Of a stretch of DNA of 4,069 nucleotides, positions 1 to 2,334 are shown one piece after another. The position numbers and the translations under genes were made by a program. The stretch is from a virus (taxonomy: Duplodnaviria; Heunggongvirae; Uroviricota; Caudoviricetes): IMG/VR virus record IMGVR_UViG_2563366958_000009; one strand, written 5' to 3'. Position 1 is the first letter of the stretch. Each line of letters opens with the position of its first letter. The notes under the pieces were generated by a model. The model did no database searches, had not been told where the DNA came from, and saw only the letters and a list, made by a program, of their open reading frames with translations.

Positions 1-2059
1 AGTAAAAATTTCTGGCGTGCTTAAAGATGGCACAGGAAAACCAGTACAGAACTGCACCATTGTGCTGAAGGCCAGACGGACCAGCAGCACGGTGGTGGTG
101 AACACGGTGGCCTCTGAAAATCCGGATGAAGCCGGGCGTTACAGCATGGATGTTGAGTATGGCCAGTACAGCGTCACCCTGCTGGTTGAAGGTTTTCCAC
201 CTTCACATGCCGGGACCATTACCGTCTATGAAGGTTCCAGACCAGGTACGCTGAATGATTTTCTCGGTGCCATGACGGAGGATGATGCCCGTCCGGAGGC
301 ACTGCGCCGTTTTGAGCTGATGGTGAATGAAGTGGCACGTCATGCCGGAGCGTCATCACAGAGTGCAGCGGCGGCAAAGAAATCCGAAACGGCAGCAGCC
401 TCATCGAAGAATGCAGCGAAAACCTCAGAAACGAATGCAGCTAACAGCGCACAAGCGGCAGCGGCCTCGCAGACTGCATCGGCAAACTCCGCGACAGCAG
501 CCAAAAAATCAGAAACCAACGCGAAAAATAGCGAGACAGCCACAAAGGCCAGCGAAAAAAACGCAAAATCCAGCCAGACGGCAGCGAAAACCAGTGAGAC
601 GAATGCCAAAGACAGTGAAGCCAACGCAAAGGTGAGCGAAACAGCGGCGGCGAACTCGGCGAAAGCATCGGCAGCAAGCCAGACGGCAGCAAAAGCAAGT
701 GAAGATGCTGCCAGAGAATACGCAAACCAGACAGCAGAGCCGTACAGATATGTTTTACAGCCGCTGCCGGATGTGTGGATACCCTTTAATGATTCGCTGG
801 ATATGATTACGGGCTATTCTCCGGGTTATAAAAAAGTGAAGATTGGTGATAATGTGGTTCAGGTTGCCAGTGATAAACAGGTTAATTTCAGTCGCGCATC
901 AACGGCAACATATATCAACAAATCTGGCGAACTGAAAACGGCGGAAATTAATGAGCCACGATTTGAGTGTGATGGCCTGCTTATTGAGGGGCAAAGAACG
1001 AACTTCTTCCCGAACAGTACAGACCCTTCGAAGTGGAATAAGTCAACTTCACTGGACGTTACAGAAACAGGCACAGATAGTTTCGGGTTTAATTATGGCC
1101 GGTTTGTCGTACAGGATTCGATTGTTGGTACAAGTAAAGCGCATACCATTATCGGACTGTATTCGAGTACCGGAGGGGTTGATACTTCAGGGGACGAAAA
1201 GCATGTAACTATATCCTGTCGGGTAAAAAGTGAAGTTGATAATATCGCCGTTCGTATTTTATTTGAACATTATGATGGGGAGGTAAGGACATCAATAGGA
1301 GCAGCAAACCTGAACCTTACCACCCGCATAATTAGCAAGACAGGTCAGACAAGCCGTGTTACAGCAAGGTCTGTTAAGGATGATGCAACTGGCTGGATAT
1401 TTTTTGAGGCTACATTAAAAGCAGATACAACAGAAAATACGGTTGGTGGTTTTGTCCAGTATTCTCCGGATACAGGGCAGATGGTTGCATCAGGGGATTA
1501 TCTCGATGTAACCACTCCACAGATTGAGGCTGGTACAGGCGCATCATCTTTTATTGTTACGGGGACGGCACCGGTAACGCGGGCAAGCGATATGGTTACA
1601 GTTCCGATTAAGAATAATCTTTATAATCTTCCTTTTACGGTTCTTTGTGAGGTACATAAGAACTGGTATAAAACGCCAAATGCAGCACCGCGTGTTTTTG
1701 ACACATACCGGCATCAGGCAGATGCGGGGATCGTAATGGGGTTTGGTTCATCAGGTGGGTACGACGGTTTTCCGTATTGTGATATAGGTGGTTCAAACCG
1801 ACGAATAAATGAAAATGCCGGGCTGGAAAAAATGCTTATTGGTATGCGGGTAAAGTCCGAACGGTCCACATGTGTAGTCAGTAACGGTAAGTTAAGCAGC
1901 GAAACTAAAACCAAATGGGAATATATCCGGAGTACAGCAACCATTCGCATTGGTGGACAAACTACAGCAGGATTACGCCATTTATTTGGGCATGTGAGGA
2001 ATTTTCGTCTCTGGCATAAAGAGCTAACAGATGCGCAGCTTGGGGAGGTTGTGGAGTGA
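1..2059 (+). CDS. stf: Side tail fibre protein, lambda Stf-like N-terminus with LamG/ConA-like C-terminal domain; 5'-partial (start codon a few bases upstream of the window)
   Basis: Open frame runs from position 2 (codons gta aaa att tct ggc gtg = VKISGV) to TGA at 2057-2059. The translation VKISGVLKDGTGKPVQNCTI...NTVASENPDEAGRYSMDVEYGQYSV...GFPPSHAGTITVYE...GTLNDFLGAMTEDDARPEALRR matches the N-terminus of phage lambda Stf as I recall it. An Ala/Ser/Thr/Lys/Glu-rich repetitive shaft follows. The C-terminus (...GLRHLFGHVRNFRLWHKELTDAQLGEVVE) resembles the terminal motif of laminin-G/ConA-like lectin domains. Confidence 0.9.
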   Translation, partial: VKISGVLKDGTGKPVQNCTIVLKARRTSSTVVVNTVASENPDEAGRYSMDVEYGQYSVTLLVEGFPPSHAGTITVYEGSRPGTLNDFLGAMTEDDARPEALRRFELMVNEVARHAGASSQSAAAAKKSETAAASSKNAAKTSETNAANSAQAAAASQTASANSATAAKKSETNAKNSETATKASEKNAKSSQTAAKTSETNAKDSEANAKVSETAAANSAKASAASQTAAKASEDAAREYANQTAEPYRYVLQPLPDVWIPFNDSLDMITGYSPGYKKVKIGDNVVQVASDKQVNFSRASTATYINKSGELKTAEINEPRFECDGLLIEGQRTNFFPNSTDPSKWNKSTSLDVTETGTDSFGFNYGRFVVQDSIVGTSKAHTIIGLYSSTGGVDTSGDEKHVTISCRVKSEVDNIAVRILFEHYDGEVRTSIGAANLNLTTRIISKTGQTSRVTARSVKDDATGWIFFEATLKADTTENTVGGFVQYSPDTGQMVASGDYLDVTTPQIEAGTGASSFIVTGTAPVTRASDMVTVPIKNNLYNLPFTVLCEVHKNWYKTPNAAPRVFDTYRHQADAGIVMGFGSSGGYDGFPYCDIGGSNRRINENAGLEKMLIGMRVKSERSTCVVSNGKLSSETKTKWEYIRSTATIRIGGQTTAGLRHLFGHVRNFRLWHKELTDAQLGEVVE
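353..720 (+). repeat. In-frame imperfect tandem repeats in stf encoding an A/S/T/K/E-rich low-complexity shaft (recurring K-S/T-SETNA-like units)
   Basis: Protein segment SSQSAAAAKKSETAAASSKNAAKTSETNAANSAQAAAASQTASANSATAAKKSETNAKNSETATKASEKNAKSSQTAAKTSETNAKDSEANAKVSETAAANSAKASAASQTAAKASEDAARE, with repeated DNA words such as aaatccgaaacggcagc, aaaatcagaaaccaacgc and aaaaccagtgagacgaatgc. A comparable low-complexity tract exists in lambda Stf. Confidence 0.6.
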
Positions 2060-2334
2060 GAGATTTCACGTTGCGTTTCAGTGATAAAGCAGATTTCAGG
2101 GCATTTCTCAGGAAACTTAACTGGGAAGAGGACGAAGAGCTGCAGAATGCCGTTCTGGTTGATGAGATTGGTTTTACGTTCAGTGAGTCAGGTGTTTCTG
2201 CTGACGGGGAGCCTGAATACACGCGAGACGAAGGGTACTTTGTTAATATTCGTCTTCTTGACGATGGCTTTGATGAATCCGTGTTCCGTGAGTGGGTGGT
2301 TACACCAGAGCGCCCGCTCAGGGAGTGGTTTTAA
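2056..2334 (+). CDS. Hypothetical small acidic protein (92 aa), translationally coupled to stf; function unknown, not a recognisable Tfa
   Basis: GTG start at 2056-2058 overlaps the stf stop TGA at 2057-2059 (GTGA). Strong Shine-Dalgarno GGGGAGG at 2042-2048, 7 nt upstream of the GTG. The ORF ends with TAA at 2332-2334. The protein is strongly acidic by my hand count (about 22 D/E against 11 K/R) with no hydrophobic segment. Confidence 0.7.
   Translation: MRDFTLRFSDKADFRAFLRKLNWEEDEELQNAVLVDEIGFTFSESGVSADGEPEYTRDEGYFVNIRLLDDGFDESVFREWVVTPERPLREWF

Follow-up and report, generated by a model that had tools for sequence, protein, structure and literature searches.

The window analysed here, a 4069-bp stretch of the Caudoviricetes record IMGVR_UViG_2563366958_000009, represents the right end of a lambdoid prophage and carries the side tail fibre gene stf, followed by an open reading frame (ORF 2056-2334) encoding a small acidic protein of 92 amino acids (aa). 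The window is 100% identical to one Escherichia coli chromosome; the other best-matching E. coli genomes listed share ~99-99.9% identity with it over nucleotides (nt) 1-3870, and at least 80% of the window is covered in 98 genomes. The small protein belongs to the PHROG 1361 family, and the new observations reported here are that a widely exchanged fibre-tip cassette of the LamG type has this family as its constant partner and that the family is unrelated to the known fibre chaperones. The small protein most likely aids the folding or assembly of the fibre tip, because its gene always trails one sugar-binding tip module.

A preliminary description of this DNA had pointed to a strongly acidic protein with roughly twice as many acidic as basic residues, to the runs EEDEE and DDGFDE, and to a start codon overlapping the stop codon of stf, and each of these features is confirmed. 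The protein contains 10 Asp and 13 Glu against 2 Lys and 9 Arg (23 versus 11, ratio 2.1), giving a calculated isoelectric point (pI) of 4.25 and a net charge of -12. EEDEE occupies aa 24-28 (nt 2125-2139) and DDGFDE aa 69-74 (nt 2260-2277), and the overlap with stf takes the form GTGA (Table 1). ORF 2056-2334 is a real late gene. Its GTG start lines up with the ATG starts of homologues, and the full 92-aa frame is present in 48 of 50 close IMG/VR prophage loci, with one of the remaining copies cut by a contig end (90 aa) and the other interrupted by a premature stop. The gene is under purifying selection, with a ratio of nonsynonymous to synonymous substitution (dN/dS) of ~0.3 in pairwise comparisons among 13 distinct lambdoid alleles. 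The profile match to PHROG 1361 extends over positions 1-92 of 92 (E 2.5e-39), and the ORF shares the length, motifs and genomic position of that family (also catalogued as pVOG VOG7707 and RAST FIG00639828/FIG00640743) with no difference. It is thus an ordinary member of a family that is already catalogued and has no assigned function. A literature search returned no paper on the PHROG 1361 family identifiers or discussing the small gene.

The pairing of the small gene with a fibre distal module, together with the overlap, is conserved across many phage lineages. A total of 80 loci were read (72 first and 8 later, close prophage copies included), and in all 80 the small gene lies directly after a large fibre-type protein carrying the common distal module. 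The start and stop codons overlap by 4 nt (ATGA or GTGA) or by 1 nt (TAATG) in 77 of the 80 loci. Such an overlap is found in 71 of the first 72, the exception being IME178 with a 46-nt gap; among the later 8, the 4-nt overlap recurs in 6, with the small gene of SelmaRatti starting 2 nt past the fibre stop and that of HMD-P3 following after a 46-nt gap. The annotated phages, in all of which the upstream gene is that of a side or lateral tail fibre, comprise lambdoid phages (phage 21, ev243, 2G7b and 4C10), T1-like Drexlerviridae (tinuso, JLBYU19), Queuovirinae (VogelGryff, KurtStettler), Dhillonvirus, T5-like Markadamsvirinae (L6jm, phA11, mar004NP2, IME178, IrisVonRoten, SelmaRatti, HMD-P3) and rV5-like Vequintavirinae (JeffSchatz, LL12). 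The N-terminal halves of the upstream fibres differ, and their last ~440 aa are common with residues 241-680 of the window Stf, at 25-99% identity.

The association also appears when the search is reversed. The distal module occurs in 218 phage records and the small gene, by tblastn, in 187, with the same split over taxa, and all three loci chosen by the module alone carry a family member immediately downstream (E 1e-36 to 7e-24). Eight phage-database records without annotation that bear the label 'Campylobacter phage' or 'Listeria phage' contain fibre loci of T5-like or rV5-like coliphages and are probably mislabelled or contaminant sequences.

Five remote family members, 77-100 aa long and 21-38% identical, extend the pattern. 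Each overlaps by 4 nt with an upstream protein of 437-941 aa, the C-terminal part of which matches a hidden Markov model (HMM) of the module, built from 42 unique fibre modules, with E-values from 9e-60 to 2e-18. Four of the five loci are SU10-like contigs, with genes for portal, terminase, capsid or an SU10-type adaptor around the pair. The fifth, on a metagenome contig, is a Mu-like myophage baseplate cluster; its protein is named in Atlantibacter hermannii, and the partner there carries PF13385 Laminin_G_3. These surroundings differ completely, and the conserved unit is therefore the pair itself, consisting of the distal module and the small protein. In three of the SU10-like partners (818-941 aa), whose genes lie with those for portal, terminase and capsid, a domain resembling the head spike of a gene transfer agent (GTA) recurs internally, up to three or four times; these partners may be tail or head fibres.

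The distal module of ~440 aa comprises a conserved neck, one or more variable domains resembling the GTA head spike, and a basic C-terminal lectin domain of the LamG/galectin type. Residues 247-341 and 494-564 are conserved within the module, and residues 342-510 and 565-646 vary strongly. The motif H-L-F-G-H-x-R-N-x-R-x-W closes the C-terminal domain, which is recognised as Laminin_G_3 in one distant partner. The head-spike resemblance is seen against both an NCBIfam profile and the RcGTA head-spike fibre (Table 1); the RcGTA head-spike locus itself gives no sign of a small partner gene.

The GC content of the window falls from 54% to 44% at ~nt 740, the start of the module, as expected for a swapped-in cassette, with the proximal part of stf, a lambda-type Stf attachment domain followed by an Ala/Ser/Lys-rich shaft, lying at ~54% GC. 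A mosaic joint is located at ~nt 737 (aa 241), the point at which homology to the fibres of unrelated phage families begins. Fragments of a Tfa gene persist further downstream in ev243 and 2G7b, which suggests replacement of an older stf-tfa cassette. In the window itself the fibre has no Tfa gene and no S74 intramolecular chaperone, PF13884 matching neither Stf nor the small protein, and the small gene takes the place that Tfa or S74 elements have in other fibres.

Phage IrisVonRoten (Bas32) offers a modelled counterpart. Its Gp22 contains the same distal module (61% identity over 433 aa), and its Gp23 (bas32_0023) is a 92-aa member of the family (E 1e-36). In the model of Humolli et al. 2025 (PMC11990801), Gp22 is a proximal fibre with a galectin-like domain protruding at its C-terminus, which may serve as an additional receptor-binding domain; Gp22 and Gp24 are described in that work and Gp23 is not analysed. 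IrisVonRoten has a T-shaped distal fibre, Gp24, as well, whereas the window is without one.

An exhaustive HMMER scan of 1.8e9 representative proteins returned 53 matches to the small protein, with no form fused to another protein among those representatives, and a profile search of 5.8e9 proteins returned 150, each of which lacks a Pfam domain and bears the name 'hypothetical' or 'putative prophage protein'. A family HMM built for this analysis also picks up the distant members. Per-column analysis of the alignment identifies D36, G60, N64 and W91 as invariant, together with hydrophobic core positions and R66/R89. The motifs G-[YW]-[FHY]-V-N-x-R and, at the C-terminus, P-x-R-x-W are present here and also in metagenomic members. 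The EEDEE loop is not conserved, being deleted in distant members (77-93 aa). Acidity is a family property, with pI ranging from 4.05 to 4.8 in 25 aligned members and from 4.05 to 4.5 in 42 unique loci.

The AlphaFold2 model of the small protein, based on a 25-sequence alignment, has a predicted local distance difference test score (pLDDT) of 91.6 and a predicted template-modelling score (pTM) of 0.77, with the predicted order of elements beta-alpha-alpha-beta-beta-beta-beta-alpha. Foldseek returned no match for this model in the PDB at E<=1e-3 (best E 0.022, best template-modelling score, or TM-score, ~0.40), and neither the single sequence nor the profile found a sequence relative there. The fold matches in BFVD are exclusively uncharacterised proteins of 64-105 aa from uncultured Caudovirales, with query-normalised TM-scores of 0.58-0.70. 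No structure of Ocr, ArdA, Ugi, Tfa, gp38, gpU or gp57A appears among the PDB or BFVD matches by fold or sequence. Pfam, NCBIfam and PADLOC gave no family match for the small protein or for any of the 25 members (Pfam at E<=0.01). A profile match to Tetrahymena telomerase p19 (E 0.017) and Pfam matches of the small protein at E>0.07 were dismissed as noise. Five proteins of 1241-2744 aa from the exhaustive search, each with 5-9 weakly matching stretches, were likewise rejected as homologues: they consist of PKD-like or other tandem repeats, and their scores were judged to be a repeat-summed effect of composition and a short motif ('Y..DNGTY.V...DDDGG' against 'EGYFVNIRLLDDGFD') and not homology. 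That short motif resembles the strand-loop G-Y-F-V-N-x-R-x-x-D-D-G of the small protein.

The pair shows an acidic/basic charge pattern. In 41 of 42 unique loci the fibre ends in a basic stretch, its final 150 aa having a mean net charge of +4.3 and a pI above 8.3 in all 41 (mostly 8.9-9.8; 9.4 in the window Stf). The remainder of the module has an acidic pI (~4.8), and the mean net charge of the small protein is -12. Charge complementarity between the small protein and the terminal lectin domain thus offers a simpler possible reason for the acidity than DNA mimicry.

Gene context and sequence together make it probable that the small protein is a dedicated accessory of a horizontally mobile fibre-tip cassette, acting as an assembly chaperone or as a stoichiometric partner. 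Such a cassette would have two elements: the ~440-aa distal module, which forms the C-terminal end of a fibre-type protein (a side or lateral tail fibre or another), and the small acidic alpha/beta protein, whose gene comes next and overlaps the fibre stop codon with its start codon. This overlap would allow the small protein to be made at the time and place of the fibre and in comparable amounts, consistent with translational coupling. The small protein may then bind the distal module, most plausibly its basic terminal lectin domain, through charge complementarity and the invariant C-terminal P-x-R-x-W tail. Once bound, it could assist folding or trimer assembly, or mask the lectin surface until assembly, in a working mode akin to that of Tfa/gp38 or of a cleavable C-terminal intramolecular chaperone, yet belonging to neither family. 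We infer physical binding, a chaperone role and any persistence on the virion from this pattern, and the balance leans, on slender grounds, towards a role in assembly only over a permanent place in the virion. A more specific and rather improbable version is that of a trans-acting receptor-mimic cap, in which the anionic surface of the small protein would fill the glycan-binding face of the basic LamG/galectin-type tip. Such a cap would act during assembly or reversibly on the virion, with the tip folded and inactive until release.

Comparison with the known fibre-tip systems clarifies what a dedicated accessory would share with them. The genes for Tfa, T4 gp38, Mu gpU and P2 gpG likewise come next after a fibre gene in their late operons, and Tfa-type chaperones are likewise specific to the distal module of their fibre and exchanged with it, as the small gene is with its own; a shared role in tip folding is proposed here only. 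The small protein differs from the Tfa type in giving no Caudo_TAP or other Pfam or NCBIfam match and no fold match, in being about half the size, and in pairing with a LamG-type tip, whereas the Tfa type pairs with a tip of the lambda Stf or T4 gp37 type. The S74 chaperone domains (T5 pb1, DT57C LtfA/LtfB, K1F endosialidase) are similarly short elements placed right after a receptor-binding tip, and a need confined to assembly, as for S74, is a proposal for the small protein. The latter is, in contrast, a separate polypeptide in another reading frame and not a cleaved domain, with no S74 homology; the LtfB-like distal fibres that follow the small gene in some phages have an S74 domain of their own.

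Several considerations weigh against an accessory role at the fibre tip. Adjacency and stop/start overlap are common in phage late operons and prove co-expression, not interaction, and physical binding and the assembly role are themselves inferred. Divergence of the small protein and of the module is only moderately correlated (Spearman 0.40), a value confounded by linkage, and a sliding-window correlation of small-protein divergence with sub-regions of the fibre, equally confounded by linkage, produced no sharp peak. The basicity of the lectin domain may merely reflect binding of anionic glycans. Shallow mass spectrometry of the mar004NP2 virion (8 proteins) detected the fibre and not the small protein, a result that is at most faintly indicative and compatible with a chaperone that does not remain on the virion.

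An unlikely alternative is that the small protein is a virion component, an adaptor or hinge through which a second, distal fibre (LtfB-like or T-shaped) would dock at the end of the proximal fibre, in a role that somewhat resembles that of T4 gp35 in the knee of the long fibre. The small gene lies exactly between the proximal and distal fibre genes in T5-like phages (L6jm, phA11, mar004NP2, IrisVonRoten, SelmaRatti and IME178), Seuratvirus, Drexlerviridae and the lambdoid 2G7b, the distal fibre is presumed to be joined to the proximal one (PMC11990801, PMC6563131), and BASEL records label the small protein 'tail fiber protein'. The N-terminus of the distal fibre is conserved (M-x-T-x-T-V-I-P-x-D-I-T-N-L-K-N), and its C-terminus is of the S74 type; the Seuratvirus version is labelled 'putative lateral tail fiber chaperone' in BASEL, though it has the appearance of an LtfB-type fibre. 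However, the window and at least 44 lambdoid loci without a distal fibre gene keep the small gene intact, with dN/dS at ~0.3, and the next gene is a baseplate hub in the Mu-like locus and a portal gene or small ORFs in the SU10-like loci. The C-terminal P-x-R-x-W is kept with or without a distal fibre, and a figure legend in PMC11990801 attaches Gp24 to Gp22, with no mention of Gp23 in that legend.

It is very unlikely that the small gene is a moron, encoding a host-directed or exclusion factor that merely adjoins stf like the cargo downstream. The region just beyond it is indeed a typical moron site, with a two-transmembrane protein, a YkgJ-family gene, a VapA-like gene and IS1, but the same fibre arrangement is found in strictly virulent phages, the small gene travels with the fibre module and not with prophage cargo, and its GC content is like that of the fibre module and unlike that of the low-GC cargo.

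The preliminary description had weighed a structural or chaperone role tied to stf against DNA mimicry, and it is the former that gains support, through the invariable overlapping gene context across unrelated lineages, with composition alone speaking for the latter. An Ocr- or ArdA-like inhibition of restriction enzymes, or of a different DNA-binding defence protein, is scarcely credible. The small protein resembles T7 Ocr, ArdA and Ugi in being small and strongly acidic (pI ~4.2; here a net charge of -12 at pI 4.25), and its predicted loops hold acidic clusters (aa 24-28, 49-52 and 69-73) that are acidic across the closer family. It differs from them in its late fibre-operon position, and the PDB and BFVD searches gave no sequence or fold match to them, nor was there sequence or profile similarity to Ocr or ArdA (Pfam on 25 members; PDB). 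Its conserved residues do not form an acidic array, and in place of an early or leading-region setting the start of the gene overlaps a late fibre gene in each lineage.

The fibre-tip module is among the most widely exchanged host-range cassettes of coliphages and Salmonella phages. If the small protein is an obligatory partner of this module, host-range engineering by fibre swap must move both genes, a family now 'hypothetical' in hundreds of genomes becomes nameable by annotation pipelines, and fibre models such as that of IrisVonRoten Gp22/Gp24 are without one component. A dedicated accessory of this kind, a small alpha/beta protein acting in trans, would rank with Tfa/gp38 and the S74 intramolecular chaperone as a third solution to the assembly of fibre tips. 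Should the receptor-mimic cap prove correct, it would define a new class of fibre-tip chaperone or regulator on a host-range cassette common to sipho-, myo- and podo-type phages.

The features of the window are collected in Table 1.

Table 1. Features of the 4069-bp window (positions in nt, 5' to 3' on the strand analysed).
Feature	Position	Strand	Evidence or remark
stf, whole	17-2059	+	5' end truncated by the window edge
stf, proximal part	17-736	+	PF08400 phage_tail_N, E 3.8e-63; PDB 9e7m 'Tail fiber protein', E 3e-44
stf, distal module (aa 241-680)	737-2059	+	Stf 322-523 against NF048003 (GTA_spike_fiber, NCBIfam 'phage head spike fiber domain'), E 8e-20; Stf 291-538 against RcGTA head-spike fibre Rcc01080 (PDB 6tb9), E 5e-5; modules with 40-99% identity precede the small-gene homologues
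Shine-Dalgarno GGAGG	2044-2048	+	Within the end of stf, 7 nt before the GTG of the small ORF; read from the sequence
GTGA start/stop overlap	2056-2059	+	GTG of the small ORF 2056-2058, TGA of stf 2057-2059; read from the sequence
Small acidic ORF, 92 aa, PHROG 1361	2056-2334	+	Predicted alpha/beta protein
Two-transmembrane protein, 98 aa	2344-2640	+	phrog_1443, E 4e-44; PHROG 1443, function unknown
YkgJ-family CxxCxxCC cysteine-cluster protein	2759-3091	-	PF03692, E 6e-12
VapA/VapB-family protein, 150 aa	3277-3729	+	PF05526, E 5e-34; NCBI annotation VapA/VapB family
IS1 end	~3874-4069		IS1A-family transposase annotated in the 100% matching genome

The two-transmembrane protein of PHROG 1443 follows the pair of fibre and small gene in temperate lambdoid phages only and does not belong to the cassette of virulent phages; its gene was not found after the small gene in T5-like, T1-like, Seuratvirus or rV5-like loci. 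The annotation of its counterpart in phage 21 reads '2 TMDs', and in phage 2G7b the gene is placed after the inserted distal fibre gene. The protein could be an exclusion or lysogenic-conversion factor. The transcript of the YkgJ-family gene would stop at a GC-rich hairpin (2647-2666), followed by a run of seven T on the minus strand. The ORF of the VapA/VapB family (Rhodococcus equi virulence-associated proteins) sits in an island of 30-37% GC, and by reading, its N-terminus is without an obvious signal peptide. The IS1 insertion at the end of the window looks strain-specific, since the similarity of the other best-matching E. coli genomes listed stops at nt 3870.

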